A stretch of DNA of 64,000 nt from Octopus vulgaris (Eukaryota), in the NCBI GenBank assembly GCA_951406725.2, contig OX597826.1, forward strand, positions 26,288,001-26,352,000. The letters are read 5' to 3'. Made by a program: the position numbers and the translations under genes. The notes below the pieces were generated by a model. It was given only the letters and a program-made list of their open reading frames with translations. It did not search any database and had not been told where the DNA came from. Positions 1,326 through 63,065 of this stretch are shown here, in pieces; within the stretch, counting starts at the first letter, position 1, and each line of letters opens with the position of its first letter.

Positions 1326-2306
1326 TCAACATAGGCACTAACAAACTAACACATCCGCGCATATATATATACATTACATGTATTTCTGCGCGTATCCGTA
1401 TATATATGTAGATATATATTTATACACTTGTCTATAAATCCTTGAAAATGTTTCAGCCCGAAAGCTGCGGCCATGCTGGGGCACCACCGTTGATATATAT
1501 TTACATACACTCTCTCACGCACACACGCATACACATATGCACGTATGCACGTATGCACACACACGCATAAACATCCACCCACGCTCATATACACACACAT
1601 AAAAGATTGTAAAAATTTTAATGTACGACGCTCATCTTCAAATATAGAAACGTCATTCTAGAGTCACCTCCCTTACATTAGAAATTACGTTGTCGTGATT
1701 CGGTCTTGAATATATTTCTCAATCACTAGAAAATGTTTACTTAAAATTGATAATGCTCTCGTTTTCAAGTACGTAAACCCTAAGCAAACTAACTACATAT
1801 AAATCCATATATGAGAGACTAACGACATTCTTCTCGAATGAATTACTGTTAAAGGACGGAGTATGTATGTATGTATGTATGTATGTATGTATGTATGTTT
1901 ATTTTGATTTCTCGTATTGTATTTTCTTTTTATTTCTCGTTTTGTATTTTCTTGTACATGTATTTTTATCTTGTATTTTATTGTGCAGTTTTATTGATAC
2001 GTCCTGTTTGTGTTACATTTTTTCTTGCTTGTTTTTTACCCCTCTGCGAGGTAATTTTATTTTGATTCTCTCGCAGGAAGGCCTCGTTTTGACGAGTCGT
2101 GCCCTGTCTTGCCTTCGAAACACGCTTGAGTCTAACTAGCGACAGCTGATGATTGGGGATTTTTCCTTGTGTAGTATGTCCTGTACTTTGTTTTTCTATT
2201 GTAAAAAAATGTTTTTCCCGTTTTCGTTTCTCGTCCAGTTCCACGTCTCCGTTTTCGTTTCTCGTTGAGTTCTACGTCTAGTTGTAGTATCCTGCACTCA
2301 CATATA

Positions 2307-3585: not shown

Positions 3586-3672
3586 TATATATTTATATAT
3601 GCATGTATATATACATGTAGATGTAGGTGCGTACATATATGTTTGTATATATGCATATATTTTATTTATTAC

Positions 3673-5439: not shown

Positions 5440-5790
5440 AATGGAGGTGGTTCATCTACATTTAGACATAATATTGTCAACTTATTTAATTATTAAAATG
5501 ACAATTACAAGAATATACATACATGTATAACATATTATGCTTTACATATAAAAATATATTAATATATAAAGAAACCAGTAATTATTTAAATATAATATTC
5601 CTTTATATTCCTGTATGTTATATTTTAATACTTACTTGTATCTTTATATATTAATATATTTTATATGTAAAGCATACTATGTTATACATGTATGTATATT
5701 CTTGCAATTGTCATTTTAGTAAATAAATAGACAATTTGACATAATATAATGGCTAAAAGTTGATGAAGCACCTATTGATTCCCTCCATTT
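5440..5790. repeat. Imperfect inverted repeat in an (AT)n-flanked non-coding element (PLE-type fold-back)
   Basis: aaaatgacaattacaagaatatacatacatgtataacata...atatataaaga at ~5495-5572 is the reverse complement of ~5641-5718. Confidence 0.7.
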
Positions 5791-15121: not shown

Positions 15122-15242
15122 CCGTGACTGTGACCGACCAGGCTATCGCTGGTCATAATGCGCTTCTCATTGTTTTAGCCTTCAAATGACGCCACCCGCT
15201 GGGTAAGCGAGCAGGCCATATATATATATATATATATATAAA

Positions 15243-19202: not shown

Positions 19203-19293
<91 letters not shown>

Positions 19294-19390
19294 ATTGAAA
19301 AAATTTTAGGGTAGCAAAAATATTTATCGAAAAATTCTTTGTTACCAGTGGTCTAGCGAGAAGGAAAAATTTAGTCAATAGACTATACAT

Positions 19391-19651
19391 TATTCAGAGA
19401 AGAATACAGTGTACATTCAAACACATAACAGATAACCAAAGAATAGGATATCTGACTCACTAGAAAGAGCAGTTAAACTCCAAGCCACTAATTGTTGTAA
19501 TTCTGAAAGTGAATGAAAAATAAAAATATTTACCCTATAGGACAGAATTACAACAATTAGTGGCTTGGAGTTTAAGTGCTCTTTCTAGTGAGTCAAATAT
19601 CCTATTCTTTGGTTGTTTCTTATGTGTTTGAATGTACACTGTATTCTTCTC

Positions 19652-19657
<6 letters not shown>
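19391..19657. repeat. Inverted repeat (~115-bp arms) in an (AT)n-flanked element with a one-sided extension (PLE-type fold-back)
   Basis: tattcagagaagaatacagtgtac...gttgtaattctg at 19391-19505 is the reverse complement of 19543-19657. Confidence 0.8.
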
Positions 19658-19705
<48 letters not shown>

Positions 19706-24830: not shown

Positions 24831-24854
24831 TTTGTTTACATTTATTATTATTAT

Positions 24855-25401
24855 CGAGTGCGAGAGCAGTGCATGCCATCAAAGTGACACTGGGGTAAAA
24901 TATACGAAGCCCAATATACCCATCATGACTACCCGTCTGATAAGGGTACACCAGGCACATGCATCACAACCATATGTGCGCGATATGGTGATCTCATATC
25001 AAGATAAACAGCACATGATCTTGCAGGTGGGGCCCAGTTAGAATTTTCTTCAGGTTGAGCAGCCCATCCCGCTCAAAAGGTCCCTGAATAAGGATTGTTT
25101 AAGGATGTTGAAAGAACCACCCATGTTGGTGAATTATTCAAACCCCAACGAATCCCTCTCAACACATGGCTATGATGCTCCCCCACTACTTCTGCTCGTG
25201 ATCAGAGATGCACATATCGTCAGCCACAAAGGGACATGCTCAACTGGTTAAAGTCAAACAACTGACAAGCAAATCTGTGGTATTGAGCAGAATATTTGCT
25301 GTAGCCCATCTTTTATACCAGACAAAACAATGTACATGATAACACTTCCAATCAGTTAAGATCAGAAGCCATGAGAGCCACTGCTTGGTACTGCATCAGG
25401 G

Positions 25402-25403
<2 letters not shown>
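24855..25403 (-). mobile_element. Family T element, full length
   Basis: On the minus strand it starts gccctgatgcagtacca and ends gcactgctctcgcactcg; (ATT)n on both sides. Confidence 0.88.
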
Positions 25404-25447
<44 letters not shown>

Positions 25448-25894
25448 GTTGTTGGTATTATTACTATATATATATATATAATATATATATATAATATATA
25501 TATATATATATTTTTATATTATATTGAGGGTACTACTATTCGTAGATACCAACACGCTAAGAGGGACCAATGCGGTCAAAACTACTAAAAATAAACAAAA
25601 TTTTACCGAATGCAAAACTTCAAAACACATCATTTTAAAAAGAATTCAGTTACATATCACATGTGATTTCGCATTTAATGCAGAATATGCATTTCATGTT
25701 CATCAGTGCAACAAACTCAAGAAATATAAGAGAAAACATAACATTACAAGCTCGATAGCCAACCGTAGAATTCGTCGTAGCATGTACGAATGTTTATCTT
25801 TACATATCTATGAAAATGGCGGGCTTATTCGCAATGCATTTCGGTAACAAATTGTCTAGTCGGAATAAAAATTCAGTATTGAACTATTCCGGTG

Positions 25895-26564: not shown

Positions 26565-26566
<2 letters not shown>

Positions 26567-26890
26567 CAATTGCAGCGTGGAAGGTGTTTGTAAGCCATTT
26601 AAGAAACACACAAAAGCCGTTCGATTCACTTCAACATTTAAGTTTAATTTGTCAAAATATTTTCGTCGCTATAAGACCGCGACCTGTTCACTGACAAGGA
26701 TTTTTGTCAGTGAACAGGTCGCGGTCTTATAGCGACGAAAATATTTTGACAAATTAAACTTAAATGTTGAAGTGAATCGAACGGCTTTTGTGTGTTTCTT
26801 AAATGGCTTACAAACACTTTCCACACTGCAATTGTTTTCGTTCCAGCACACGATCTCAGATCAAATCACTTGCTATGCAAGTGCATCTCC
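26565..26890 (+). mobile_element. Fold-back non-autonomous PLE-like element with two G3-C8 hammerheads and a ~55-bp tail, inserted in the (AT)n of a family B SINE
   Basis: Near-perfect palindrome 26565-26835 centred ~26699; tail 26835-26890; second family member at 56643-56955. Confidence 0.8.
26703..26753 (+). ncRNA. Type I hammerhead motif with G3-C8 swapped core (mirror copy on minus strand 26648-26697)
   Basis: tttgtca|GTGAACA|g|gtcgc ggtcttata gcgac|GAAA|atat|TT|tgacaaa; 7-bp stem I, 5-bp stem II, palindromic stem III aatatt. Confidence 0.7.
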
Positions 26891-31305: not shown

Positions 31306-31339
31306 AATAATGAAAATAATAATAATGGTAATGATGATG

Positions 31340-31370
<31 letters not shown>

Positions 31371-31457
31371 TGATAATAATAATAATAATGATGATAATAA
31401 TAATAATAATGATGATAATAATAATAATAATAATAATAATGATGATGATGATGAATA

Positions 31458-32005
31458 GCCCTGATGCAGTACCAAGTAGTGGCGGTCATGGCTTCTGATC
31501 TTAACTGATTGGAAGTGTTATCATCTACATTGTTTTGTCTTGGTATAAAAGACGGGCTACAGCAAATATTCTGCTCAATTCGACAGATTTTCTTGTCAGT
31601 TCTTTGACCTTAACCAGTTGAGCATGTCCCTTAGTGGCTGACGATATGTGCATCTCTGATCACGAGCAGAAGTAGTGGGGGAGAATCATACACATGTGTT
31701 GAGATGGATTCTTTGGGGTTTGAATAATTCACCTCTAGAAACATGGGTGGTTCTTTCAACATCCTTAAACAACCCTTATTCTGGGACCTTTTGAGCGGGA
31801 TGGGCTACTCGACCAGAAGAAAATTCTGACTGGGTCCCACCTGCAAGATCAGGCGCTGTTTATCTTGATATGAAATCACCATGTCGCGCACATATGGTTG
31901 TGATGCATGTGCATGGTGTACCCTTATCAGACAGGTAGTCATGATGGGTATACTGGGCTTCGTATATTTTACCCCAGTGTCACTTTGAGGGCATGAACTG
32001 CTCTC

Positions 32006-32010
<5 letters not shown>
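31458..32010 (+). mobile_element. Family T element, full length
   Basis: Starts gccctgatgcagtacca after (AAT/GAT)n; ends ctgctctctcaatc then (AATC)n(AAT)n. Confidence 0.88.
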
Positions 32011-32080
<70 letters not shown>

Positions 32081-32097
32081 TAATAATAATAATGATG

Positions 32098-32133
<36 letters not shown>

Positions 32134-32620
32134 GTACATTGTTTTGTCTTGGTATAAAAGATGGGCTACAGCAAATATTCTGCTCAATACCACAGAGTTG
32201 CTTGTCAGTTGTTTGGCCTTAACCAGTTGAGCATGTCCCTTAGTGGCTGACGATATGTGCATCTCTGATAACGAGCAGAAGTAGTGGGGGAGCATCATGG
32301 CCATGTGTTGAGAGGGATTCTTTGGGGTTTGAATAATTCACCTCTGGAGTCATAGGTGTTTCGTTCAACATCCTAAAGCAACCCTTAATCAGGGACCTTT
32401 TGAGCAGGATGGGCTACTCAACCTGAAGAAAATTCTAACTGGGCCCCACCTGCAATGTCATGTGCTGTTTATCTTGATATGAGATCACCATGTCGCGCAC
32501 ATATGGTTGTGATGCATGTGCCTGGTGTACCTTTATCAGACGGGTAGTCATGATGGGTATATTGGGCTTCCTATATTTTACCCCAGTGTTACTTTGATGG
32601 CATGAACTGCTCTCTCACTC
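32134..32620 (+). mobile_element. Family T element, 5'-truncated
   Basis: Tandem with the previous copy, separated by (AAT)n. Confidence 0.88.
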
Positions 32621-32652
<32 letters not shown>

Positions 32653-32654
<2 letters not shown>

Positions 32655-33865: not shown

Positions 33866-34088
33866 CTGAAGTGATGTTGGTGGAGACAAACACAGACACT
33901 CAAACATGTGCACACGCGCACACAGACACACATATTTATATGACAGGATTCCTTTCAGTTTCCATCTAACAAATCTACACTGAAGGAACCAGGCAGTGGG
34001 ACTGAACCCGGAACCATGTGGTTGGTAAGCGAGCTTCTTACCACAGAGCCACTCCTGAGTGTGTGTGTGTGTGTGTGTGTGGTGTGTA

Positions 34089-34180
<92 letters not shown>

Positions 34181-34366
34181 AGTGGCTCTGTGGTAAGAAG
34201 CGCGCTTACCAACCACATGGTTCCAGGTTCAGTCCCACTGCCTGGTACCTTCAGTGTAGATTTGGTAGATGGAAACTGAAAGAAGCCTGTCATATAAATA
34301 TGTGTGTGTGTGTGCGCGTGCGCACATGTTTGAGTGTCTGTGTTTGTCTCCACCAACATCATTTCA
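33866..34366. repeat. Fold-back duplication of a family B SINE head around (GT)n(AT)n(AC)n
   Basis: 33866-34056 and 34178-34366 are reverse complements and share the same internal deletion. Confidence 0.8.
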
Positions 34367-36135: not shown

Positions 36136-36188
36136 TTTCCTGATGAGAAGGCGGCATAATGCACCCCTTATTCCTTCGAAATTAGGAA
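36136..36188 (+). ncRNA. Hammerhead-like motif with canonical core and almost no stem III
   Basis: tttc|CTGATGA|gaagg...ccttc|GAAA|t|TA|ggaa, inside a ~350-bp insert in the (AT)n of a family B SINE. Confidence 0.5.
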
Positions 36189-37639
36189 TATGCAGCCTTT
36201 GAAACATATGTCGAGAATAAAGGAATTTTGTTAAATCGTCGTTCAACTCCATTCTTTCATTTATTTGTATTAAAAAAAAACACACAAATTTCCACACGAA
36301 AGCACGTGATCTCTGCCCTTGGCATGTAGCTTCAACCGTGTTTCCCTGACGTGAATTTGCTACCCAGGTATCGGTTAACCGAATTATCCATACTAAGATA
36401 ATTCATTCAACTACTTAAATATATATATGTATGTATATGTGTGTGTGTGCATGTATATGTTTGTGTGTTTACGTCCCCGTCACTTAGCGGTTCGGCAAGA
36501 GAGACCGATAGAATAAGTACTAAGATTACAACGAATAAGTCCTGGGGTCGATTTGCCCGACTAGAGGTGGTGCTCCAGCATGGCCACAGTCAAATGACTG
36601 TAATGACGGAAACAAATAAAAGAAAAAAAAATGAAAAAAGAAAAATGAGTATTTATTATGAACACAATTCAATGAGGAAAGGGAACTTTAAAACCCTGCG
36701 ATGTTTCAAACCCTATTGTGTGCCTTCATGGAAACCAGTACATCACCAATTAATCTAAAAAAAATACAGGCAATTGCTTATAGAAATCAGCAAACAAATT
36801 ATTTGATGATACATGTTGTGGTCTGCGAAAACAATACTAATATTAAAGGTGCAGACTGCAGTCTTATAAATTCTCCTTACACTAGTTAATCTTGTATGTC
36901 ATGAGGAGATGTTCTGTGATGATGAAAAGCAACAGCGATCAGATATATATGTTGAAACCGGCCTGTACCTATTAAGAATGGATATGTTATTGTTTTCATA
37001 TCTACTGTTCTGTGTGCGCCTGATGAATTTAGTTTTGTTATTTTCCTCGATATGCAAGTTGCATATCTGAAACTGGTAAAATTATGTAGGGGGTGTAAAT
37101 TTTGATCTTGCACCACCTGGAAATTCCAAGGGGTGCAAGGGGTGCAGGTGCACCCGCTGCACCCCCTGTTCCTGGGCCCTTGTATGCAACACATATAAAC
37201 AAACCTAAGTTGGGGCTCAACAATAACAACAGCTTCAACAACAGCAACATGAACAAGGATATACAAGAAATTACTAATATCTCTATTGCTTTCTCATCTC
37301 AGAATCAAAGCTAGAAATTTCAAATAGTTACCAGTTTTCAGTGAGCAATAATTGAACATAAAATTGTTTCTCATTCTCCTTGTTTTCTTTAGAAATTCAG
37401 CGGTATTTGTAATTTAATGACTTACCCTATAATTTTCAACTGATGAATTAATATTTCACGTTGGGTTAATGCTGTCTTGTCGAATTGGAATTTGATTCCA
37501 TTTTGCTCTTCACTGCGTTAAGTATTTGGATTAAAGCTTAACGTGTCATGGTTTAAGCAACGTGTCGAGCTATTTACAGAAACCACAGGACAGCGATATT
37601 GGTGGGTACAATATTTCATAACACAAAATACATAGAGAT

Positions 37640-37915
37640 TAATGCCGGAATGTTTAACATTTATGATGTATATCGAAAGGTGGAACGGTAATAGCTGTGA
37701 TAATTTTTCTTAGAGAAACATCTCAAAGAATAATGTATGTTGAAACCACAATGCTTTTCAAAGAGCGCCGCTGGATTGTCATATACGGTGTTTTGACGTG
37801 AAACCTCCTTGTATTTAACACACAAGTCTCCTTCGGATGTTTCTCTGAGACGAAATATTACAGTTAATACCGTTCCACATTTGTATGCACATTATAAATG
37901 TACATGCCAGCATTT
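37640..37915. repeat. Old imperfect palindrome
   Basis: aatgccggaatg..catttatgatgt..gtggaacggtaatagctgtgata..ttagagaaacatc pairs with gatgtttctctgag..tattacagttaataccgttccac..acattataaatg..catgccagcatt. Confidence 0.65.
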
Positions 37916-42736: not shown

Positions 42737-43745
42737 TAATAATATTAATAATAATAATAAAATTATAATCATAATAATGATCGATTTTCGAAGCATCCTC
42801 GCATCGTACAGCTTTCTAAAGCTTTCGATGAAAGCATGGTTGTCACATAATCTAATTTCGACTTCTTTACCTCAGTATAAAATAAAATGAGTGCTTTTGA
42901 ATGTAAGAAAAATAATAATCAATATTCGAAGCATTGTCGCATCACACGCCATTCATTGTAGCATCACAACCATTGTAGAATCAAACCTTTGTAGAGTCTT
43001 GTCATAGCACTATTATTCCAACGTACCGTTGTATTATCTAGATGTTCCTCACCGAAAACATTTTGTTGCGTTTGTTTGCTTGGTTGTTTGTCTTTTTTTG
43101 TTTTAAATTTTTAGATTTTTATTTATTTATATATTTTTGTATTTTTGATATGTTGTTCAGGTTTTTGAATTGACTTAGTCATTACTGCCATCTCTTACGC
43201 ACTGCAGTAGTCTGGAACCAACGAAACAAAATTTATATCTCACACTTGTATGGTTTTCAACAATGGAATAACCACACATCAATAACCGTCTCACTCACTC
43301 ACTCATTCACTCACCCACCCACACACGCACTCATTCATTCAGTCAGTCACTCACTCACTATTTTATCTCCCTCCCCCTTCTCCCTCGCATCTTTCTCCTC
43401 CAACTCTCTCTACCTCTGTCCCATTTGAGGTCTCTTGTTATATTTCAGGTCATATAAATAGTTTCCTCTTCTAGACTCACCGTGTTTTTACTGTCCACAA
43501 CTTTTCTGTTTTTGTTTTGCATTTTTATTTTTGAATTTTCTTTCTCTTTTGTTTTATTTATTTATTTGAAATTTAATGTTCATTGCTTTTTTTTATATTT
43601 CTCTAGCCACTCTTGTCTCGCAAGAATATTTCTCTTTTTTTCTTTTTGTTAATATTTCTACAACAATGCTTGTCTCGCAACAATTGATCTTATTTCCAAC
43701 TGGGTCTCTTAAAGTAGACCATACTTCATATATATATATATATAT

Positions 43746-43849
43746 TCCCTAAATTTACTGAAACGTTTTGAAACCCTGAGCCAACATATATATATATATA
43801 TATATTTGTTGGCTCAGGGTTTCAAAACGTTTCAGTAAATTTAGGGAAT
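43746..43849. repeat. Perfect ~43-bp-arm palindrome around an (AT)n loop
   Basis: ttccctaaatttactgaaacgttttgaaaccctgagccaaca ... tgttggctcagggtttcaaaacgtttcagtaaatttagggaa. Confidence 0.85.
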
Positions 43850-45212: not shown

Positions 45213-45404
45213 GAAACGATATGTGTATATATATATATGTAATATTTTGGACTAATGGATATATGTCGATTAGATTGTTAATGTGTTGAGTAAAGCACTT
45301 GCACGGTTTGGGTTACCTGATGTCACCCGTAGTTAGGGCATATTTCTGCTGGATCTACTCCAAGAATTCCGCAGTATTAGTTGAGATAATAATAATTAAG
45401 TAAC

Positions 45405-45810
45405 CAGAAATTGGATGTGGTGCTAGTCTTTATTTTGTACGGTGATTGTTTTGACCCATCCTGCTGCTGTCCCTTATGCGTAGGACTCCGTGCATTCGTG
45501 TTTTATTGCATCTATTTTCGGTTTTGGTTACATCAGGTACATTCATACATAAAGTGGTGACTCAATAAAAATCTTGATTTTGGGCGGTCATTTTATTTGC
45601 TTGACAAGAAAATAAAAACATGACCACTCGAACTCAAGATCTTTAGCGAGACACGACTTTTGTAAGGATGTACCTGATGTGACCCAGACTGCAAAACGGA
45701 TACAACACAATATGATGCACAGAATCTCACCCATAAGAATCTGTAGTAGGATGGATCGAAATGAACGTACTACAAAATAAAGACTAATACCAAGTCCATT
45801 TTTTGGCTAA
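45405..45810. repeat. Diverged ~200-bp-arm palindrome immediately upstream of the PLE RT
   Basis: tagtctttattttgta / tacaaaataaagacta, ggttacatcaggtacatt / gatgtacctgatgtgacc, ggtcat / atgacc; centre cttgacaag at ~45603. Confidence 0.7.
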
Positions 45811-45853
45811 TATATATATATGAACAAAATAAGAATAAACAAAAACAAATTAC

Positions 45854-47040
45854 ATGACAGGATGTATGGTGGGTAGCATGGATGTGGTATCCCTATACCC
45901 ATCGATTGACGTAGATTTTGCGGTGGAGAAGTGCATGGAGATGATCAATGAGAGCCAGGTGGAGTTCCGTAATGTCAACACAGGGGAACTGGGCCTCCTA
46001 CTTAGACTGACATGTAACAATGAATACCTAGATAAACATAATCGTAGTAGTTTCTGCCTCAGTAGATGTTTAAGAGGTAGAGCGCCCACAATTACTTTTA
46101 TGGCTAGGAAGACATATATAGAAAGATCGCGCGGATGGACCAGAGACATACGGAGCCCGCAAATGTCCATCAGGTAAAGAAAATGATCGCACATGCACTA
46201 GGAGCTAGTATAAGAGTTACCCTAAAAGGCCACACGTTTAAGTTTAACAATAAAATATATGCTCAGGACGAGGGGGCAGCCATCGGCGTTAGTATTGCTG
46301 GTGATGTAGCCAACCTTTTCATGGTATGGTGGGACAGAAGGCTTAAAGAACGCCTAACACAGAACTCCATACTCGTAAACATGTACTCTCGCTATGTTGA
46401 TGATATCAACATAGTGGTAAAGGCACCCCCACAAGAGAGTACTGTTGATATAGTAATAGAAACTAATACTATAGAGAGCATCCAGCATATAGCTAACTGC
46501 ATCCACCAGAGTATTAAGGTCATAATAGACTACCCCACTAAACACCCCAACCATAGACTACCAGTACTAGACACTGAACTCTGGCTAGAAATTGTGAATA
46601 ATAAAACCCAAATTCTTTATTCATACTATGCCAAACCTATGGCCTCAAAATACTTGATCCACCGGAACTCAGCTATTGCGGACGATGAAAAATTCAATAT
46701 TTTGATGGCAGACCTCGTCAGAATAATGAGAAATGTGTCACGCATGTGTGAGCCTACAGAGTTAAAGAGACACATACAATATTTCATTCACCGCATGCAG
46801 TTCTCAGGTTACAGCCATAAAGAAAGGATCAGAGTATACAAAGGAGCCATGAAAAAATTTGATGATATATTATGTAATGATAGGAATGGGATTTGCCCAC
46901 TCTATAGGAACAAGTCATTGAACACTATAGAAAGGACAAAAAAGAAAATAGGGAAGGCCAACTCTTGGTATGATAGCCATAAATACCAGAGTGTCATGTT
47001 CGTTGACACCACCCCTGCATGTGGCCTATGTAAGCTCATT
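45854..47040 (+). pseudogene. Penelope-like element reverse transcriptase (probably Naiad-type), frameshifted and truncated
   Basis: SMDVVSLYPSI, IYAQDEGAAIGVSIAGDVANLFMVWWD, SRYVDDINI, LPVLD, YYAKPMAS, MQFSGYS and SVMFVDTTP. Confidence 0.88.
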
Positions 47041-47469
47041 CAGCGCACGAGGAACGGAGAGGTGGTATGCCTTCCCACAGATAAGTCCGGCAGGATGTCA
47101 ATAGACAGCTTACCGAACTACATCCAGGCAATGCAACCTCATATCGCCATACAGTCCATAAAGTGCCGGGAAGCAAGCTTCTTGCCACATAGCCACTACA
47201 AAAACTATCAAACCGATTCATACCATATTACCAGTGACACCCACCTAAAATCTGTCTAAGTTTGGTCCTAGTGAACTGTGCTTCCATATGGTCATTAGTA
47301 TGTCTTGGGATGTAGACTCTTTTGTTGAAGGGTAATGTTGTTGGATAAATCCGGCTTATGCAGTAAGATTTGTCACATACGTTGAAGAATTGAGTGTCAA
47401 AGGGGTGGGTATACATGTTAATGGCCTTTCTAGGGTTATCTTCATTATCGTTACTACTATTTCTGTCGT

Positions 47470-47705
47470 TACTGTAATTTGTCTGATTGTTGCATCTGTT
47501 CTATGTGTGGACAATATTTTAATTTCTATGTTGTTGATTGATCCTCCGTGTTCCTGTTCGGCGTGTTGGTACAGAATCGATGAGCTTTTACCTTCCTTGA
47601 GTTGTCTCCAATATATTCATTTACCCGCTCTCCTATGCTTCTTGCCGTTTCCTCTACGTATGTCGTTGTCTTGTTACTGCATCGTCCCTCTATACATCTT
47701 ATACT
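47470..47705 (-). pseudogene. PLE GIY-YIG endonuclease fragment, inverted relative to the RT
   Basis: IRCIEGRCS..TYVEETARSIGERVNE, then after a frameshift SSILYQHAEQEHGG..IKILSTHRTDATIRQIT. Confidence 0.75.
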
Positions 47706-47799
47706 ACAAAGATGTTTAAGAGGTAGACCGCCCACAATTACTTCTATGGCTAGGAAGACACATATAGAAAGATGGCGTGGATGGACCAGTTTTTAAAAT

Positions 47800-48250
47800 T
47801 ATATATATATAATTGCGGTTAGTGTTTTTCGCGTTGTTGTTGTTGTTGTTGTTCGTATTGTTGTTGTTGTCGCAAGTGTTGTCATTGTATCTATTTAAAT
47901 TCCAACGTATTTTTGTGAACGACTTTTCAATCTCGGAGAGGCATTTGATGGTATTCACCTTACTATACATTGCATACTTTGGTGGTAGTTGAAGTATCGA
48001 TATTTCGTCTGGGTCCGATGTTACTCCCCCATAGATGTTCGCTTCATTGTCTTTATTGAACTCTTCTGGTAGTAGGACATCTTCCATAATAATTCCATTT
48101 ATTGTATCTGGATACTTCTGCTTTTCTTCCTTTGCGAGCTCATATTGATGTTTCTATTTCAACCACGATAACTTCCTCTTAAAATGGATATTGCACTGGT
48201 GTATTAATTGTCTGTTTTCTTCATATATTATATCCATTAGTATGGTTTTC
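47800..48250 (-). pseudogene. PLE N-terminal region fragment
   Basis: IYGGVTSDPDEISILQLPPKYAMYSKV...EIEKSFTKIRWN resembles the L.LGPKF motif upstream of the PLE RT. Confidence 0.6.
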
Positions 48251-48593
48251 TCCTTTCGTTTCACCTTTGTTTCACTTTATTTTTAAAAAGATTTTCAAAA
48301 GTAAAATGTAAGGCTTTGTGTAGCCTTTGTGGTGTTAAAACAATGATTAATGTAGATGTATAAAAATACAGTGATAGAGTCTTTGACAGTGATAAGAAAA
48401 TGTTTAGAAGGGCATTTGTTTAAACAGCTTACATAAAAGCGCTCAAAGTAGGTAGTAAAATAGATTCATAATTGTTTATAAGTTCATAAAGAATCATGAT
48501 TGTATATAAGCATATATACAGAAAGAATTTGTAGATAGTATTTGATAGAAGAAGCGTGTATTGCTTTGTCAAAACTTCAACATATATGTATAT

Positions 48594-48659
<66 letters not shown>

Positions 48660-48867
48660 GTGAAATAGAAAGATGAATAATCTTGTAGTAGATTAATCAA
48701 AAGTTTAACCGATACCTTAGTAGCAAAAATCACAGCAGTAAACAGCACGGTTGGAGGTACAACCATATGGTGTTGCAACCGTGCGTTGGTGCGGATAATT
48801 GAAATTAAAACATTATTGGTGAATTGAAGAAATGGAGCTGAACGCAGATTGAACAGAAATCGTTTTA

Positions 48868-48956
48868 TTTCATTCTACACGTGTTTCGAAAGGCACAAAT
48901 TACCAAAATCCGATTGAATAATGGGACCATATTGTGTCTTTCTCTTCAGGAAGAAA
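48868..48956 (-). ncRNA. Type I hammerhead ribozyme with canonical core
   Basis: Minus strand: tttc ttc|CTGAAGA|gaaagacacaa...ttgtgcctttc|GAAA|cacgtg|TA|gaa t gaaa; long stem II, palindromic stem III acacgtgt. Confidence 0.72.
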
Positions 48957-49000
48957 ATAGGAAATCCGTTGGAAAAACAAAAACAGAACAGAGGCGGAGC

Positions 49001-49078
49001 AAAAACAAATCGAACTATGCTCCTAAGAGCCCAAGGCGAAACTCCATGGGCTCTTAGGAGCATAGTTCGATTTGTTTT
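49001..49078. repeat. Short fold-back at the 5' end of the HHR-bearing element at 48658-49078
   Basis: aaaacaaatcgaactatgctcctaagagccca ... tgggctcttaggagcatagttcgatttgtttt. Confidence 0.85.
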
Positions 49079-49849
49079 TACTAGTTTCAGTCACTTGACT
49101 GCGGCCATGCTGGAGCACCGACTTTAGTCGAACAAATATGACCCCAGGACTTATTCTTTGTAAGGCTAGTACTTATTCTATTGGTCGCATTTGCCGAACT
49201 GCTAAGTTAAGCGGACATAAACACACCAACAGCGGTTGTCAAGTGATGGTTTGGGGACAAACACAGACACATAGATACACACACACACACACACATACGA
49301 CAGTTTGTTTTGAAGTTACACCTTCCAAACCGACTGAAAGCTTTGGTCGGCTCGAGGCTACAGTGTAGAAGACACTTGCCCAAAGTGCCGGGAAGCAAGC
49401 TTCTTGCCACATAGCCACTACATAAACTATCAAACCCATTCATATCATATTACCAGTGACACCCACGATACTGAACGAATATTATACGCATTCTGTACTG
49501 CAATGGTCACCAGAGATATTTGTTAAAAAGTGTTGAATTGTTTATTGTACCGCCATTTTTTATTCACTGATAATTTTTTTCCCACAGACTATGTTTCAAA
49601 TTATATTCTATAAGCCTTAAAGGATTCCTTTTCTTAAAAGTTATTTTATGGGGAGCAGCACTCCAGTAATGAGGATGACTGCGATTTGCACTCTTACCAG
49701 ATTTAACCGCAGGTTCTACTGATATAAATTGAAAATCGTCTAAGAAATACAGAGAGACGCCGTGTACTATGCAATTCTTAAAGTTCTAATAATGTAGTTT
49801 AAACCACAGTGATTTAAGGCTCCATAAAAGAGAAAAGAAAGCGTCAACA

Positions 49850-52255: not shown

Positions 52256-53949
52256 TATAAACGTTGGCATATATTTGTTATACAAAATTAAGGATAAACC
52301 CACTTTAATGATTTTATCAAGTGACCAACGTGAAATGAAAACCCATACAGGTTAACAATTTATACTAATTTATAATTATATAATATAATTATATTAAAGG
52401 GTGCGGATAAACCCCACCAACACGCTAAAAATAGACGTCAAATGCCTTTAAAAACCACATCAACACCCTCTTAGCACCGGTTATAAGCGGACAGATGGAA
52501 AATGAATGGTTACTTTTTTAAAATTAGTTCGCACAACCATATAAATACACTTGCATGTATACACTATTTAAATCTAATTTCCCCCTCTCAACCACGTGGT
52601 TTTACTATCAATATATAATTATGTAATACGCACATACAGACGCATATTTATATTAGATCCTTTTCAACTGATTATCGACTGAATCATACATTCAACGCTG
52701 GAAGAAGAGACATACTCTTCATAAAACGTAAAGAATGAGTCTACATGTTCACTAGACTTGATAAAAGTAGTAACTACATCTCCCCATACTAAAAAGATAT
52801 CAGAAGTGATCAAAGATCTTACTCGAGCCATAATCTCATATGACCAATTTCCAGGATTCTGTGGCGTATATATTCCCATTCTAGATGGAAATCCGTTCCG
52901 TTACAGGATTATTCATTCTTGCCAGCTGAATGCAGTGAAGCTAGATAAAATGATGTATTTTGCTCAAGAACACAATTCGTCACACAGTCTATGAATTGAA
53001 ACCACAATATTACTATCCACTAGACCAATAACCACTATGCCAGACGTCTCCACACTAAATAGAGTAGAGGCCAAATGAAATAATATAATCCAAAGTATAT
53101 TATTCCTTGTAGCTCCTTCCGAAAATAACAAAAAATATCCCCAAACCAAAGAAAAACTGACTGGCACTTAACGCAGGAATGCTTTTCATGATAGGTATTC
53201 CAATCTAGGCCGCCATGTTTGCTAAACCACAACAGAAACATCAGCATCCATTTATACTTACTCTTTATACAGTCTTTCCATAATGTATCGCATATTTTCC
53301 ATACAACATTGGCTTAACTGGAAAACCTTACAATTTAAAGCTCAAATACTGCTTCAATCTTGCCATGAAAAGCTGACAAACGGATCAAAAGACCACATGT
53401 GTCTGGTTGAAGGCAGAATAAAGAGAAAATATAGGTGTTGAGAGACAGACAGAGATAGAAAGAAAGAAGAAAATGTGGTAACAATCAAAGATGGATGGAC
53501 AAGAAGGAATATGTTATAGAAATATCAAATTGTTTGCATATATGTGTGTTTGAGTATGTGTGTGTGAGACACAAAGCATATACACACAAACAAATGTACA
53601 CACACACAAACACATGCCCTAACACACACAAAAACATACTCAGGCACGCACACACCCAGACACATATACACACAAAAATTCGCAGAATTTTCTGTTCTGG
53701 ATCAATTATAAGAATATGGTATGTCCCCCGTAACTTAGCAGTTCGGCAAAAGCGATAGATACGATAAGCACATGAGTCAAAACATAAGTACTAGATTCCG
53801 ATTCGTTAGACTAAAGTTCTTGAAGAAGATGCCCCAGCATTGCCGCGGTCTAAATGACTGAAATAAATAAAAGATAAAGGAATATATATATATATTTATA
53901 TATATATTCCTTAAAGGAATATATATATATATATTTATATATATATATA

Positions 53950-54895
53950 CCAATTAAGGACTGCACACGAAAAGTGGACAGTCAACATGCTAGATATAGA
54001 CGTCAAATCGCCATTCTCCACAAAAAGTTTATGTTCTCAGATCAAACTCAACAAAACCAAAGCAATAAACAAGTGAAAAATATACGAAATAAATATTTAC
54101 CCATGTACTAAATTTAGTTTCAGCTGTTATTTTCCGCAAGGAAAAGTGCAGCATCATCAGCATGGTCCCATATAAAATGTAATTTGCTGGACTAAATGCC
54201 AACACGACACCAAAATATCGCGTGCATGGAGTCCGGCCTATTACATTTGAAATATATATTTCAAATGCCTCTACTTTTGGCGCGATGAGACTCGAGAAAA
54301 CTAGCCTGCAGCTAATAGTTAGCAGCAGTTAATTTATCGGTTAGAGAACAAATATTTATAAAATTAAATTTAGGGTAAAAATTGATATTTATCAATTAGA
54401 ACCAGTGGTCCAGCATATTAAAGAAAGAATCCGAAGATTAAAATATTTATATATACCATCGCGCCAAAAGTAGAGGCATTTGAAATATATATTTCAAATG
54501 TAATAGGCCGAACTCCATGCACGCGATATTTTGGTGTCGTGTTGGCATTTAGTCCAGCAAATTACATTTTATATGGGACCATGCTGATGATGCTGCACTT
54601 TTCCTTGCGGAAAATAACAGCTGAAACTAAATTTAGTACATGGGTAAATATTTATTTCGTATATTTTTCACTTGTTTATTGCTTTGGTTTTGTTGAGTTT
54701 GATCTGAGAACATACACTTTTTGTGGAGAATGGCGATTTGACGTCTATATCTAGCATGTTGACTGTCCACTTTTCGTGTGCAGTCCTTAATTGGTATATA
54801 TAAATATTTTAATCTTCGGATTCTTTCTTTAATATGCTAGACTACTGGTTCTAATTGATAAATATCAATTTTTACCCTAAATTTAATTTTATAAA
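53950..54895. mobile_element. Inverted, circularly permuted ~500-bp HHR-bearing unit (mini-PLE or retrozyme-like)
   Basis: Order B(53950-54285), spacer, C(54355-54454), B'(54459-54794), C'(54795-54893); hammerhead within B/B'. Confidence 0.75.
54579..54643 (+). ncRNA. Type I hammerhead ribozyme with canonical core (mirror copy on minus strand 54101-54165)
   Basis: ccatg|CTGATGA|t gctg...cagc t|GAAA|ctaaatttag|TA|catgg; perfect stem I, palindromic stem III actaaatttagt. Confidence 0.75.
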
Positions 54896-55222
54896 AATTA
54901 TATTTATATATATATATATTCCTTTATCTTTTATTTATTTCAGTTATTTAGACTGCGGCAATGCTGGGGCATCTCCTTCAAGAACTTTAGTCTAACGAAT
55001 CGGAATCTAGTACTTATGTTTTGACTCATGTGCTTATCGTATCTATCGCTTTTGCCGAACTGCTAAGTTACGGGGGACATGAAATTACCAACACTTTTGT
55101 GAAGCGCTGAGGGTTAGAAAAAACCAGGCACTCCCCACGCACACATGCACACACGTATACACACCCACTCACACATATATACATAGATGTATACACACAC
55201 AAACACAGTCGCATATATGTAA

Positions 55223-55481: not shown

Positions 55482-56642
55482 GACAGGTTTTTTTCAGTTT
55501 GTCTTCATAACCACTTCTTACCATACACACACACACACACACACACACACATGGGGAGTGAAACGCAAACATCAATATCGGACTCTCATCAGATGGAGTA
55601 CCCTTCTTGTTTAGCTTTTTAAGCAGATGAATTTACTATATATATATATATATTGACATATACAGACACACACGCATTCACATACACCGGAGAAATGTCT
55701 ATTTTAGTCATACAAATAGTTTACAGACGATTAATAGAAGACCCCTGGGAGTGAGACACCTCTTAGCATTTGTTAAAGCATGTCTCTAGGATAAGGTCAC
55801 TCTGATATAAAACCAGAAATGTAGGGAATAGCTTTGAACATATTCGGGATATTTTGCTTAAACGTGAGATCATGGCGTTCCCGCATTCCTGAGCCGGCAA
55901 TCCATATGTTTCCCTGGTTTGTCTCTAGATTATGTCAATACGGCGGAGGGGGTCTGTGATGTGCTGTGCAAGCTTTATTGAACGTAAAACATTCGGTTGT
56001 GCGATTAACGGTGAGGCGACTTTCCGAAGCCATGGTGAGTAGGAGTTCTCCACTGCGAGTATGGAAGCCGCAGGTGCAAACTCGAACGAAGGCTGAGACA
56101 TCGGTCCTATCGAGAAAGTTTCTCCAACGCACTTTACATATTAGTGATGAGAAGCTGGAGACTGATGTGGATGCCAGCAGAGGCTGGTACTCTAATGTAC
56201 CGACTCCAGCATTTGATTTGTACTTGGAAATATAAAAGTACTTGGAAAAGTACAGGACAAGCTTATTTATACTTAAAATATTGCAGTTATAGTTAAAATT
56301 CAAAAATATATTTAGATTTAAAAACTAAGAATAATAGCTACTCTATAATTAAAAAAATAACTCAAAAAATAATTTGAAGGCTGACTGTTCACAAAAAATA
56401 AAAAATTCAATAGTACAATTAAAAATGTTTTTTTTCAATTGCAAATTTTTAATAACTACTAAAATTCTTAAGTAGTTTTCAATTAAAAATAAATCTTCTT
56501 GGCGGTAGGCTACATAGCCCATATGCTACGAAATGTCGCGTACGGATATGGGAGTATTTAAAAACTCGTAACTGAGGAAACATTTTTAATAAGGCTATTG
56601 TAAAATTTCAAAATTTTTGCTAACAGCTTTAAATTTATTTAC

Positions 56643-56955
56643 GGAGATGTACTCGCATAGCAAGTAATTTGATCTGAGATCGTGTGCTGAAACGAAAACA
56701 ATTGCAGCGTGGAAGGTGTTTATAGGCCATTTAAGAAACACACAAAAGCCGTTCGATTCACTTCAACATTTAAGTTTAATTTGTCAAAATATTTTCGTCG
56801 CTAAAATCCGCGACCTGTTCACTGACAAAAATCCGTGCTGCGGATTTTAGCGACGAAAATATTTTGACAAATTAAACTTAAATGTTGAAGTGAATCGAAC
56901 GGCTTTTGTGTGTTTCTTAAATGGCCTATAAACACCTTCCACGCTGCAATTGTTT
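56643..56955 (-). mobile_element. Second copy of the G3-C8 HHR fold-back family, opposite orientation; HHR on minus strand 56780-56829
   Basis: Same arms and tail as 26565-26890; minus strand reads tttgtca|GTGAACA|g|gtcgc ggatttta gcgac|GAAA|atat|TT|tgacaaa. Confidence 0.8.
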
Positions 56956-57579
56956 AAATTTATTATTTGAGTTAAAATTTTAATTGTAGAGTAGCTAATA
57001 TAATGGTTTTTAAATATAAATATATTTATAAATTTTAACACTAGCTGCAATTTTCTAAGTATTCCAGGTGTAATAACTTAAGATTATTAACCCCCATGTG
57101 TCACATTTTTCATTGTGATCCACTTTTTTCTAGGCAATCCAATTAAATGAATAAATAGTGACAATTAATAATTTGTAATTTTACCTGATTAAAAATTATC
57201 TATTTCATTTAAGACTTTTGTTAAATAATTTTTTGATTATTGTTCATGTTTGATGATTAAATTAAAATAAGATTAAGTATAAATATAAATAAACAAAAGA
57301 AATCAAATGTAAGAGCACTTTAATTACACTGGTTCATTACAAAATCGAAAATTCAGAGAAAAAGAGAAAAATAGAAGAAACCTCACTGTGACACAAGGGA
57401 GCTAACCGTGTATATTTTATATGTTATAGTAGATTATATATAGTTTGATAATTTGGGAATGATATATAGTTGTTTTGAGCAATTGGAGTGTTTATTCACT
57501 CTACCTTTCAATTTATTTCTCCCTTCGCCTCGGTGTCACCTGAGCACTTCCAGCTGCAGTCCTCTTCGGTTTAACGACG

Positions 57580-57629
<50 letters not shown>

Positions 57630-58686
57630 CTTAGATAAATTAGATATGTTTCGACCAAAGATTGGTCCAGTCCATGTCTAACTTAATAGCACCACCTGAT
57701 AGGATTATTCGAATCCTGTTTAAGTCAAGTTTTGTTCAAGTAGTGAGTTCTTGTTGGGTGAGTTGTATCCAATTATGGGTGGCTTATCTGGTATTCTTTG
57801 AAGGAATCTATCCAGACTCCGTTTAAAGTTGATGGGATCCTTTTCCTCTTTGATCTCCCTCGGGACAATGTTAAATAGGGCAGGGCCTGTTGAGCAAAAG
57901 AAATTATGTTGCAGTGTACATGTATATTGTGATCTTGAATTGGGCAGGGGACGTATGGCCCGTGGTCCCAGTCTTGGATGAACCTTGAAGCTAATTTTAA
58001 GGTCGTTTGGGCAATGTTGGCGGTATATTCTCCACATCGTACAAATGATGTACCGCTCACGGCGACGCTGGAGGGAGTAGAGTTTCAAGGCTTTAAGGCG
58101 ATCCCAATAATCGAGAGCAGCCATGCCTTCAATTCGTTTAGTGAGTGCCCTCTGGGGTGACTCAATTCTGGAGATGTTTTGTCTTGTATGGGAAGACCAC
58201 AGTGGGCAGCAGTATTCAAGGTGTGGCCGAACAAGGGAGGAGAAAAGTGGTATGATGACACCTTGTTTTCTGGACCGGAACTCATCCTACGAGCTATATC
58301 GACCTTCTTGTGGATGTGTGCACTCCAACTGAGATCGTCATCAACAATTAAACCCAGGTCTCTGATATTGTTAGAGGCTGTGAGCGGTTCCCCTGAAGGA
58401 AGAGAGTATGGTTGTTTTAGTGAGGAATTTCTTCCAAAATGCATCAGCTCAAATTTTCCCTCATTCAGTTGCGTTTTGTTTCTGTCTGCCCATTGACACA
58501 CAGCATATAGATCAGACTGGAGTTGAGTTCGGTCTGCTTCTTCATTGACGATTTGCTGGAGCTTAGTGTTATCAGCAAATATTTTCACTTTGCAGTAATG
58601 TACGACACTGGAAAGGTCGTTTATGTAAATTATGAAGAGTAGCGGACCCAAAACAGTCCCCTGGGGAACACCGCTGGTGACTTTTG

Positions 58687-58690
<4 letters not shown>
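57630..58690 (-). mobile_element. 5'-truncated CR1-group LINE, related subfamily to 15243-17110
   Basis: SGVPQGTVLGPLLFIIYIND, FADNTKL, DLG and LYSLQRRRERY with frameshifts; shares the 3' motif caggtggtgctattaagttagacatgg; inserted in (AT)n. Confidence 0.9.
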
Positions 58691-58725
<35 letters not shown>

Positions 58726-58727
<2 letters not shown>

Positions 58728-58829
58728 AACGAATCGCCTTTCGGTTTAACGGCGTTATATATAAATATATATATATGTATATATATTTAAAATCTTAGGG
58801 TAGCAAGAATATTCATCGTAAAATTCTTA

Positions 58830-58888
<59 letters not shown>

Positions 58889-59037
58889 ACGAATTGCCTT
58901 TCGGTTTAACGACGTTATATATATATATATATATATATATGTATTTAAAATCTTATGGTAGCAAGAATATTCATCGAAAATTCTTAGTATATATATATAT
59001 ATATATATATAACGAATTGCCTTTCGGTTTAACGACG

Positions 59038-59040
<3 letters not shown>
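58726..59040. repeat. Alternating X-Y-X-Y-X short units separated by (AT)n
   Basis: X = taacgaat(c/t)gcctttcggtttaacg(g/a)cgtta (3 copies); Y = tttaaaatctta.ggtagcaagaatattcatcg.aaaattcttag (2 copies). Confidence 0.85.
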
Positions 59041-59073
<33 letters not shown>

Positions 59074-59076
<3 letters not shown>

Positions 59077-59954
59077 ATTTACAAAATAAGGGCAAAAGAA
59101 AAATTCTAATGCCAAATATGCCGAAAAAAAGACAAAAATTGTCAATAACCATTATAATTTATGCGTCCCGAAACAAACCAATAGAAATTTCTAAAAAATC
59201 CGTTATTACCGTATTGGTCCCAATTTCGGGGTTAATTCATAAGAATTTTCCCCTCTTCAGCGATAAATACGTGGGATATAAGTGAAATACTTACTCATAC
59301 CCATGGAAAAAGCAAGTACTAAGTCATGAGCAGACCTAAGTACCCCAAATATATCCAGAGTAGAAAAAACTTCGGCACATCTCGAGACACGTGTGATTCG
59401 AACTAGAAACTTTCACAGAGTGAGAGAATCCGGAAGTGAATACTATTCAATTGATAACTAATGTAGGATAAAATTTTCGGGTACTTAGGTCTGCTCATGA
59501 CTTAGTACTTGCTTTTTCCATGGGTATGAGTAAGTATTTCACTTATGTCCCACGTATTTATCGCTGAAGAGGGGAAAATTCTTATGAATTAACCCCGAAA
59601 TTGGGACCAATACGGTAATAAAGGATTTTTTAGAAATTTCTATCGGTTTGTTTCGGGACGCATAAATTATAATGGTTATTGACAATTTTTGTCTTTTTTT
59701 CGGCATATTTGGCATTAGAATTTTTCTTTTGCCCTTATTTTGTAAATTATTTATGAATTTAACCTTTAAAGGTATTTTTTGATATGCTGGCCATTGATAA
59801 ATTTTGTTTCCTGAAAAAAATTTTATCCTACATTAGTTATAAATTGAATAGTGTTCACTTCCGGATTCTCTCACTCTGTGAAAGTTTCTAGTTCGAATCA
59901 CACGTGTCTCGAGATGTGCCGAAGTTTTTTTCTATTCTGGATATATTTGGGGTA
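59074..59954. mobile_element. Inverted, circularly permuted ~475-bp HHR-bearing unit (mini-PLE or retrozyme-like)
   Basis: Order D(59074-59345), E(59341-59477), D'(59479-59749), spacer, E'(59817-59954); hammerhead within D/D'. Confidence 0.78.
59559..59617 (+). ncRNA. Type I hammerhead ribozyme with canonical core (mirror copy on minus strand 59207-59265)
   Basis: tatcg|CTGAAGA|gggg...cccc|GAAA|ttgggaccaa|TA|cggta. Confidence 0.78.
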
Positions 59955-59968
59955 GATTATTATTATTA

Positions 59969-60524
59969 TCGAGTGAGACAGCAGCGCATGCCATCAAAGT
60001 GACACTGGGGTAAAATTTACGAAGCCCAGTATACCCATCATAACTACCTGTCTGATAAGGGTACACCATGCACATGCATCACAACCGTATGTGCACGACA
60101 TGGTGATCTCATAGCAAGATAAACAGCACATGACCTTGCAGGTGGCGCCCAGTTAGAATTTTCTTCTGGTCGAGTAGCCAATCCTGCTCAAAAGGTCCCC
60201 GAATAAGGGTTGTTTAAGGATGTTGAACGAACCACCCATGTTTCCAAAGGTGAATTATCCAAACCTCCAAGAATTCCTTTTAACACACGGCTGTGATGCT
60301 CCCACACTATTTCTGCTCGTGATCAGAGATGCACATAACGTCAGCCTCTAAGGGACATGCTCAACTGGTTAAGGTCAAAGAACTGACAAGCAAATCTGTG
60401 GAATTGAGCAGAATATTTGCTGTAGCACATCTTTTATACCAAGACAAAACAATGTAGATGATAACACTTCCAATCAGTTAAGATCAGAAGCCACGAGAGC
60501 CACTGCCTGGTATTGCATCAGGGC
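59969..60524 (-). mobile_element. Family T element, full length
   Basis: Same sequence as 31458-32010; (ATT)n on both sides. Confidence 0.88.
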
Positions 60525-60549
60525 ATTTATTATCATCATTATTATTATA

Positions 60550-60626
<77 letters not shown>

Positions 60627-61725: not shown

Positions 61726-61808
<83 letters not shown>

Positions 61809-62280
61809 GAGTGAGAGAGCAGTTCATGCCATCAAAGTGACACTGGGGTAAAATATACGAAGCCCAATATACCCATCATGACTACCCGTCTGATAAGGGT
61901 ACACCAGGCACATGCATCACAACCATATGTGCGCGACATGGTGATCTCATATCAAGATAAACAGCACATGACCTTGCAGGTGGGATCCAGTTAGAATTTT
62001 CTTCAGGTTGAGTAGCCCATCCCGCTCAAAAGGTCCCTGAATAAGGGTTGTTTAAGGATGTTGAAAGAACTACCCATGTTTCCAGAGGTGAATTATTCAA
62101 ACCCCAAAGAATCCCTCTCAACACATGGCTATGATGCTCCCCCACTACTTCTGCTCGTGATCAGAGATGCACATATCGTCAGCCACTAAGGGACATGCTC
62201 AACTGGTTAAAGTCAAACAACTGACCAAGCAAATCTGTGGTATTGAGCAGAATATTTGCTGTAGCCCATTTTTTATACCA
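61809..62280 (-). mobile_element. Family T element, 5'-truncated
   Basis: Near-consensus copy between (ATT)n tracts. Confidence 0.88.
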
Positions 62281-62363
<83 letters not shown>

Positions 62364-62487
62364 GTGGTAGAATCTTTTGGGCCTTGAACACTTTACGTTC
62401 CAAGTTCAGAGACCATCGGGGACATATTTACTTTTCATCTGCGCAAGATCTATAAAATAGAGTACCCCTAAAGTGCTGAGATCTACA

Positions 62488-62780
62488 TTTTTGGAGCACC
62501 TTCCCGAGTATTCGAGCGGTTTCAAGAAGTGCTGTTTCTGCAAGTGCTCCATCCTTATTGCAGCCCCTATTTGTTCCACGTACCTCTGGAGATTTTTGCT
62601 CACTGTTCCCAGGGCTCCGACAATTATTGGCACTACTGTCACCTTTTCCATCGACCACAACTGCTTAACTCCCCAAGCTAACCTGTCATATCTCTCAACT
62701 TTTCTTTCTTCCTTATCGCATACCTTCTTGTCAGCTGGGCATGCTATATCTGTGATCCAGCATAGTTTACTTTCTCAATT
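62488..62780 (-). mobile_element. R4/Dong-type RLE fragment (same family as 32653-33075)
   Basis: LCWITDIACPAD..VKQLWSMEKVTVVPIIVGALGTVSKNL. Confidence 0.8.
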
Positions 62781-62804
62781 AAGAGTATTGTCGGCTTCCA
62801 ATTC

Positions 62805-62906
<102 letters not shown>

Positions 62907-63065
62907 GTGATCGAATCTTTGGGCCTTGAACATTTTACGTTCCAAGTTCAAAGTCTATAGAATAAAGTGCCCCTAAAGTACTGAGATCGACATAACCGCC
63001 TTTCCCACTTGCCCAAAAGTGCTGGCCTAGTACAAAATTTGAAACCATCATCATCATCATTATTA

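Follow-up and report, generated by a model that had tools for sequence, protein, structure and literature searches.

A head-to-head pair of permuted hammerhead units in the Octopus vulgaris genome, probably inserted by PLE proteins

Studying a 64,000-nucleotide stretch of Octopus vulgaris DNA (contig OX597826.1, positions 26,288,001 to 26,352,000, here called the window) reveals at 59070-59954 two opposed copies of one small hammerhead-bearing unit. These copies are probably the product of a non-autonomous passenger of PLE proteins, the head-to-head pair being formed by two-strand target priming. One arm overshoots a full turn of the unit by a few bases, the other falls 62 nt short of it, and a second locus of the window repeats this pattern in an unrelated sequence with a gap of 63 nt. 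Which template was copied into the two arms is weighed below.

In plus-strand order, (TA)n is followed by rc(A) rc(B), then by A C B and G(ATT)4, and finally by an older repeat. Segment A spans 59484-59754 (+) and segment B 59817-59954 (+). The 62 nt of segment C (59755-59816, +) are present in a single copy directly downstream of 59754, a recurrent 3′ end, and may represent a candidate protein-binding site. The full-turn arm A-C-B (59479..59954, +) has 476 nt, which is one period of 471 nt plus a terminal redundancy of 5 nt, as the GGGTA at 59479 comes again at 59950. The short arm B-A (59477 down to 59070, -) has 409 nt and corresponds to positions 333-742 of the doubled unit, i.e. one turn minus 62 nt, with only segment C missing. 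It crosses the closing junction at 59341/59340, where B runs directly into A. A sequence-only reading of this DNA had described an inverted pair of permuted full units of about 475 nt beginning at 59074. The inverted and permuted arrangement could be retained, as could the passage of the minus arm across a junction that is not a microsatellite; the size had to be changed to 471 nt and the edge to 59070, and only the plus arm makes a full turn (plus 5 nt), the minus arm of 409 nt lacking C.

The 5′ ends of the arms meet at a central head-to-head joint (59474..59483) with a possible T-rich microhomology of about 3-4 nt, and a single C at 59478 belongs to neither arm. The 3′ ends face outward onto microsatellites: the minus arm ends on a (TA)n tract (59039..59069) and the plus arm on G(ATT)4 (59955..59967), the edge of an older dispersed repeat. 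Both are likely targets. On the 471-nt unit the two 3′ ends are 200 nt apart. No target-site duplication is discernible in these (TA)n and G(ATT)4 flanks, and the inverted duplication of flanks found at 53950-54899 is not present at 59070-59954. Across 409 aligned unit positions the arms show 7 mismatches and one gap, which leaves 401 identical (about 98%), and these eight differences support a young event, as had been proposed. Besides the two arms the 64-kb window holds no further copies of the 471-nt unit. A direct tandem of hammerhead-bearing units is absent at the locus. With a single hammerhead on each strand, the locus would be unable to set a monomer free and probably represents a dead end.

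To describe the ribozyme a type I descriptor was used (core CUGANGA/GAAA/UH, three helices). It gave three strict hits over the window, one in each arm and a looser one at 36140, and matched 0 of 5000 dinucleotide shuffles of the unit. The plus-arm hammerhead (59558..59618, +) has its core from 59564, helix II at 59571-74/59593-96, helix III at 59600-03/59608-11 and a predicted cut at 59612/59613. Its minus-arm counterpart (59206..59266, -) has the core from 59260 and a predicted cut at 59212/59211. In both, helix I has 6 bp, helix II 4 bp and helix III 4 bp (A15.1-U16.1 scored in addition), and the two motifs lie on opposite strands 304 bases apart. Helix sizes of 6 and 4 bp are those of the canonical metazoan or retrozyme type as opposed to the minimal PLE type (PMC4209133). 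The label canonical given earlier agrees with the descriptor. The Rfam hammerhead models give no match at gathering score in the window or at E<=10 in both loci. Self-cleavage of the arm hammerheads is predicted; the active fold has -13.8 kcal/mol against -20.1 kcal/mol for the local MFE, i.e. it lies about 6 above, and helix III is missing from the MFE structure. The looser hit (36140-36212, +) has helices of 5/6/2.

The 471-nt unit is non-coding. Its GC content is 0.32, the longest ATG ORFs comprise 36 aa (+) and 58 aa (-), and a search of 54 PLE proteins against the doubled unit found no PLE coding remnant (best tblastn E 0.38). An ORF with RT and GIY-YIG domains is absent at the locus, the nearest PLE coding remnant ending at 48234, about 11 kb away. 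The sequence-only reading had named a long PLE ORF attached to copies that form no closed unit as part of what would speak against it; this unit is closed and free of PLE coding sequence. A tRNA-derived SINE or Pol III reading was discarded, as no tRNA was found and the unit contains 11 runs of at least four T. A B-box-like Pol III 9-mer in segment B (59891-59899), which lies 74 nt into the short arm counted from its 5′ end, may be due to chance. Folded as a circle the unit reaches -115.3 kcal/mol with 65% of bases paired (z -4.8, 40 shuffles), and among 22 background windows a single one is lower, itself an inverted repeat. Linear permutations (-114.9 to -121.3 kcal/mol) match or surpass the circle in folding energy.

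In order to see the unit beyond this locus, we compared it with contigs of four out of 24 sequencing runs, two of DNA and two of putative RNA, at a likeness of at least 85%. The two DNA runs contain 5632 and 4349 matching contigs; the summed contig depth of 10^5-10^6 is not a copy number. Both DNA runs have the closing joint 59951->59482 among their joints, and both putative RNA runs show variant joints leading back to the unit start. Because the closing joint or its variants recur in DNA and putative RNA runs, head-to-tail closure of the 471-nt unit is a family trait, in line with the small closed unit claimed before. What the joint demonstrates is that copies pass over the junction, which is less than a direct tandem of hammerhead-bearing units. 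In 19 contigs of run X2 the sequence leaves the unit at 59754 into (AT)n, like the minus arm, and in three contigs of run X9 it leaves at 59841 into (TA)n. Strand switches were seen in four of the 15 joints listed (59479/59661, 59557/59623, 59695/59888 and 59817/59871), all differing in place from the central joint studied here. The central joint itself, 59817/59479, is absent among the 15 joints listed (of 19), and therefore the exact insertion stands without independent read support.

Variation within the family, given here for 40 of 69 variant rows, appears to fit the hammerhead fold and supports a ribozyme under constraint. At N7, the free position of the core, A59568C reaches 21% of depth in run X1, one helix II pair varies on both sides at similar frequency (G59573A 29%, C59594T 37%), and A59622C (98%) brings back a pair in the distal part of helix I. 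Ahead of GAAA, the conserved C is replaced by T in about one third of the depth, which weakens its pairing. Both arms have C59542, C59550 and G59656, states that are absent from most of the family depth. As the arms share such rare states, either a single source lineage gave rise to both or homogenisation followed afterwards. In the putative RNA run X17 a single contig with a depth of 895.5 spans a variant closing junction and the depth of the hammerhead region is about 35, a contrast that is neutral as to an RNA circle. Exact-pattern scans of metagenome and viral contigs gave 0 matches each, as expected for an animal repeat.

The same head-to-head topology is found at 53950..54899 (locus 1), built from a 506-nt unit. 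The full-turn arm (54458-53950, -) has 509 nt and the short arm (54457-54899, +) 443 nt, a turn minus 63 nt; the 3′ ends are 107 nt apart on the unit. The hammerhead variant of locus 1 (cores at 54584, +, and 54160, -) has a palindromic helix III, and its helix II has a U.U mismatch at the base. The variant is seen in the MFE fold and lies outside the type I descriptor. Sequence likeness between the two loci is not significant (alignment score 102, shuffles 88 +/- 12 with a maximum of 155), and a 3′ motif common to both was rejected (nhmmer E 8.7; local score 25, under the background of 27-39). So the earlier statement that an unrelated sequence has the same topology holds, and a shared mechanism behind the two loci is supported. 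For the locus at 59070-59954, the fold-back integration suggested in the same reading loses ground, because after B a simple fold-back would go on into the right flank and not into A; two-strand target priming describes it better.

Locus 1 is flanked by a common dispersed repeat, which occurs on both sides as an inverted duplicate (53721-53949 and 54900-55080) of about 150-180 nt with 98% identity (3 mismatches in about 150 nt). This suggests that target DNA was copied during the insertion, for which RNA priming alone is insufficient. The left (TA)n tract of this flank holds a small extra hairpin. Pieces resembling the 3′ end of the locus 1 short arm and ending on (TA)n occur at 19291-19362, 58787-58828 and 58946-58988 (all -), the latter two as part of a unit of about 160 bp repeated just left of 59070. 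A third family has copies at 26565-26890, which lies between (TA)n tracts, and 56630-56955, with head-to-head arms of 135 and 116 nt and a one-sided tail of about 55 nt. No hammerhead was found in these arms. The family has a MITE-like look, yet it fits a PLE-type product.

PLE insertions often consist of a main copy whose 5′ end is joined to an inverted 5′-truncated one, with a tail of 30-40 bp and a bias for microsatellites (Craig et al. 2021, PMC8557442), and units with an inverted truncated copy have been shown (Arkhipova et al. 2013, PMC3846280). In work with a purified PLE protein, the two target strands were both cut and extended, ATT was preferred and synthesis started inside the RNA (Frangieh et al. 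2024, PMC11167929). Our locus has both the inverted 5′-truncated copy, in this position, and an AT-rich, microsatellite target. The insertion could have proceeded as follows. A source elsewhere in the genome, holding two or more tandem units, would be transcribed, and a PLE endonuclease/RT would cut both strands at the (TA)n/(ATT)n boundary. The left end would prime at the recurrent start 59754 and copy 409 nt, the right end would prime at 59954 and copy 476 nt, and the two cDNA ends would be joined through a few T/A bases. One cDNA per cut strand with joined ends would yield the observed layout.

That candidate helpers exist in this genome is shown by a decayed and rearranged PLE at 45842..48965, with the RT core on the plus strand and N-terminal pieces on the minus strand; this does not make that element the helper. 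Its RT remnant (46108-47034) shares 93% identity with a predicted Octopus vulgaris protein, a close relative with the CX4CxxC linker, and relatives of the remnant possess a C-terminal GIY-YIG domain. The decayed element contains a minimal, PLE-type hammerhead motif at 48949 (-), and an 85-nt hairpin lies beside it at 48998-49082. Between the unit and PLEs no sequence link was found within the window, terminal repeats included, or with the 54 PLE proteins. A PLE as helper is therefore suggested by architecture. The PLE reading has to face some misfits: no target-site duplication is visible, and the published PLE tail of 30-40 nt, an optional extension of one of two arms that otherwise share their end point, does not match 3′ ends that are 200 nt apart here and 107 nt at locus 1. 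Microsatellite flanks are not specific for PLEs, because LINE-type RT fragments also adjoin (TA)n in the window (15218-16785, 57604-58689).

Several known systems come close to the locus. Animal retrozymes have been described, their circles were shown in coral, mussel and axolotl, and PLEs were named as likely helpers (Cervera and de la Pena 2020, PMC7229834). A later study linked retrozymes to PLE terminal repeats, counted solo monomers and argued that animal retrozymes are non-autonomous PLE derivatives; of nine dimers tested there, one cleaved (Li, Clavereau, Pollet 2026, bioRxiv 10.64898/2026.07.22.740005). Target-site duplications of retrozymes, when present, exceed 4 bp. Like animal non-LTR retrozymes, the octopus unit is small, non-coding, closed and low in GC (32%), has a canonical type I hammerhead, is self-paired and high in copy number, and resides in a mollusc genome that also contains PLEs. 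Solo monomers are described for retrozymes as well (bioRxiv 10.64898/2026.07.22.740005). Its 471 nt are just over the retrozyme range of 150-450 bp given in one source (PMC7229834) and within the 51-972 bp given in another (bioRxiv 10.64898/2026.07.22.740005). Unlike retrozymes, the locus has two opposed arms of about one turn at most in place of a direct tandem; a 471-nt RNA circle is putative here and cleavage is predicted.

With the units of EN+ PLEs (Penelope/Poseidon, Neptune) the locus has in common an inverted 5′-truncated copy joined at the 5′ end in permuted order (PMC8557442, PMC3846280) and 3′ ends facing outward on AT-rich microsatellites (PMC8557442, PMC11167929). Opposite-strand hammerhead pairs 100-700 bp apart have been reported (Cervera and de la Pena 2014, PMC4209133), and the 304 bases between ours resemble the spacing of a few hundred bases in PLE units. 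In contrast to EN+ PLE units, there is no ORF or remnant of one, the hammerhead is canonical and not minimal, the 3′ ends are 200 nt apart and the arms are capped near one period. Chlamys MRC1 is likewise a non-coding PLE passenger, and MRC1-type elements form pseudo-LTRs and head-to-tail copies; these resemble their autonomous partner at the 3′ end and, in the accessible text of that source, belong to a clade mostly without hammerheads (PMC8557442). Accordingly the locus is classed neither as an active retrozyme (no direct tandem) nor as a PLE (no ORF, no standard tail), and seems to work like a retrozyme carried by PLE machinery. The sequence-only reading had seen in it an undescribed cephalopod system. 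In the literature searched we found no cephalopod retrozyme family and no one-turn rule, Repbase or Dfam may already list the family, and the kind of system is known.

The lengths of the arms are the main evidence on the template. All four arms of the two unrelated loci measure 0.87-1.01 of a period at different start phases. The full-turn arm has one period plus 3-11 nt at both loci, and the short-arm gaps of 62 nt here and 63 nt at locus 1 follow immediately after the point at which the short arm has its 3′ end. This one-turn rule is based on two loci, both chosen beforehand for this feature. A linear monomer cut by its ribozyme was rejected as template, as no arm ends at the cut site and all four arms cross it; the 5′ ends of the arms lie 85 and 218 nt upstream of the core, and 127 and 298 nt at locus 1. 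Clipping of the plus arm by its (ATT)n neighbour was set aside too. The right-hand repeat likely predates the insertion, because it is about 90% identical to its kin and the arms are 98% alike.

The reading to which we give the most weight, close to an even chance and still short of it, is an uncut linear RNA of more than one unit, a mini-PLE A-C-B-A with hammerhead-bearing terminal repeats around 195 nt. One cDNA would start at the 3′ end 59754 and be 5′-truncated; the other would start internally and run to the 5′ end 59479, as in twin priming. Twin priming is a term and model from LINE-1 work. Indeed the 3′ end 59754 recurs in the family, the 5′ end 59479 may do so as well, and the rare variants common to the arms fit a single RNA molecule. 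A partial tandem with an inverted truncated copy is a normal PLE product (PMC8557442, PMC3846280), and uncut RNA was the main PLE substrate in vitro, ribozyme cleavage being unnecessary (PMC11167929). The price is a series of coincidences, namely an internal start exactly on the unit junction here, a stop exactly on the junction at locus 1 and gaps of different cause being 62 and 63 nt; moreover, segment B (138 nt) is copied twice. The other template would be a re-ligated 471-nt RNA circle, on which a PLE RT starts at more than one site and can not exceed one turn, a reading we hold as a tentative one. Tandem source transcripts would be cut by the hammerhead and ligated into 471-nt circles, and an RT starting just upstream of a protein-bound segment C would stop about 62 nt short. 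If the RT halts at its own start or its own bound site, the lengths are explained: four of four arms near one period despite different phases, the overshoot of 3-11 nt at both loci, the nearly equal gaps and the read-through of the cut site in all arms. By a rough estimate, chance would give each of the two loci an exact turn in one of its arms in less than 1% of cases, but the loci were preselected. In vitro, PLE reverse transcription begins at +111-118 and depends on RNA as far as +172; the stretch of about 55-60 nt required beyond the start is near the gap of 62-63 nt (PMC11167929). The circle is further favoured by the canonical retrozyme-type helices mentioned above (PMC4209133), by the reuse of 59817 in one of the four strand switches among the 15 joints listed, and by the right-hand repeat being likely older, so that it did not clip the plus arm. 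On the other hand, there are two loci only, both preselected for their look, and another copy switches strand at 59479, the first base of the compared stretch, so that the junction may be a preferred end. Linear permutations fold equally well or better, the putative circle is deduced from arm lengths, and the published retrozyme model, in the accessible text of its source, involves rolling-circle multimers and no one-turn cap (PMC7229834).

A DNA-level origin appears improbable. One monomer arm, possibly captured as a cut DNA circle or a cut tandem unit, would have been inserted, and the second copied by template switches during repair of a fragile (TA)n site. In its favour are the inverted flank copy of locus 1, of the same apparent age as the arms, the rare variants common to both arms, and other inverted duplications centred on (TA)n in the window (33867-34366, 91%, and 43744-43849, 98% identity). 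Three switches would be needed, one of them across the 5-nt overlap and rebuilding the family's own junction; the stop would coincide with the recurrent end 59754, and the flanks at 59070-59954 are not duplicated. We regard an assembly artefact (a fold-back read) or a MITE/foldback-type DNA transposon as very improbable. The central joint is missing among the joints listed and long inverted arms are MITE-like, but 8 differences separate the arms, whose order is permuted and not mirrored, the termini do not form inverted repeats of one another, and the junction and 3′ end recur in independent contigs. The full proposal that octopus ribozyme RNA circles are copied by PLE proteins from both cut strands for at most one turn, with the gap of 62-63 nt as the footprint of the RT binding site, we consider rather doubtful.

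The window as a whole is microsatellite-rich animal DNA with further repeats of note. A unique motif of about 15 nt precedes (TA)n four times (57565, 58740, 58900 and 59023) around the LINE RT fragment 57604-58689, and we read 57565-59023 as a nested insertion hot spot. A dispersed repeat is always found within (ATT)n (59956-60590, 61794-62281, 24842-25467, 31329-32653, 62406-62910); an ORF piece on the minus strand at 62406-62774 resembles the C-terminus of an R4/Dong-type LINE. A putative mariner-like element (2302-3590) has terminal inverted repeats of 42 nt and a transposase-like ORF (2544-3284, -), so labelled from the look of its translation. Older palindromic elements with 67-87% arm identity are located at 5445-5773, 19384-19665, 37641-37914 and 45401-45809, and two of them adjoin (TA)n.

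Head-to-head pairs at (TA)n/(ATT)n are already known as a published PLE signature. What we did not find in print is the length rule, by which one arm exceeds a turn by a few bases and the other lacks 62 or 63 nt of it. The rule bears on how retrozymes return into genomes and on what role the hammerhead plays in PLEs. There is a tension in the field, as circular templates were proposed in 2014 and 2020, not demonstrated in the accessible text of these sources (PMC4209133, PMC7229834), and uncut linear RNA was the main substrate in the one in vitro study (PMC11167929). A high-copy family with a closed unit, a two-arm scar and measurable arm lengths makes the question countable from one assembly: a ceiling of one turn would point to circles, longer arms to linear multimers. 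Should the ceiling fail, the unit would be another PLE passenger family, useful mainly for the annotation of octopus repeats. If the circle reading were true, thousands of dated copies would form a fossil record of PLE RT acting on circular RNA.
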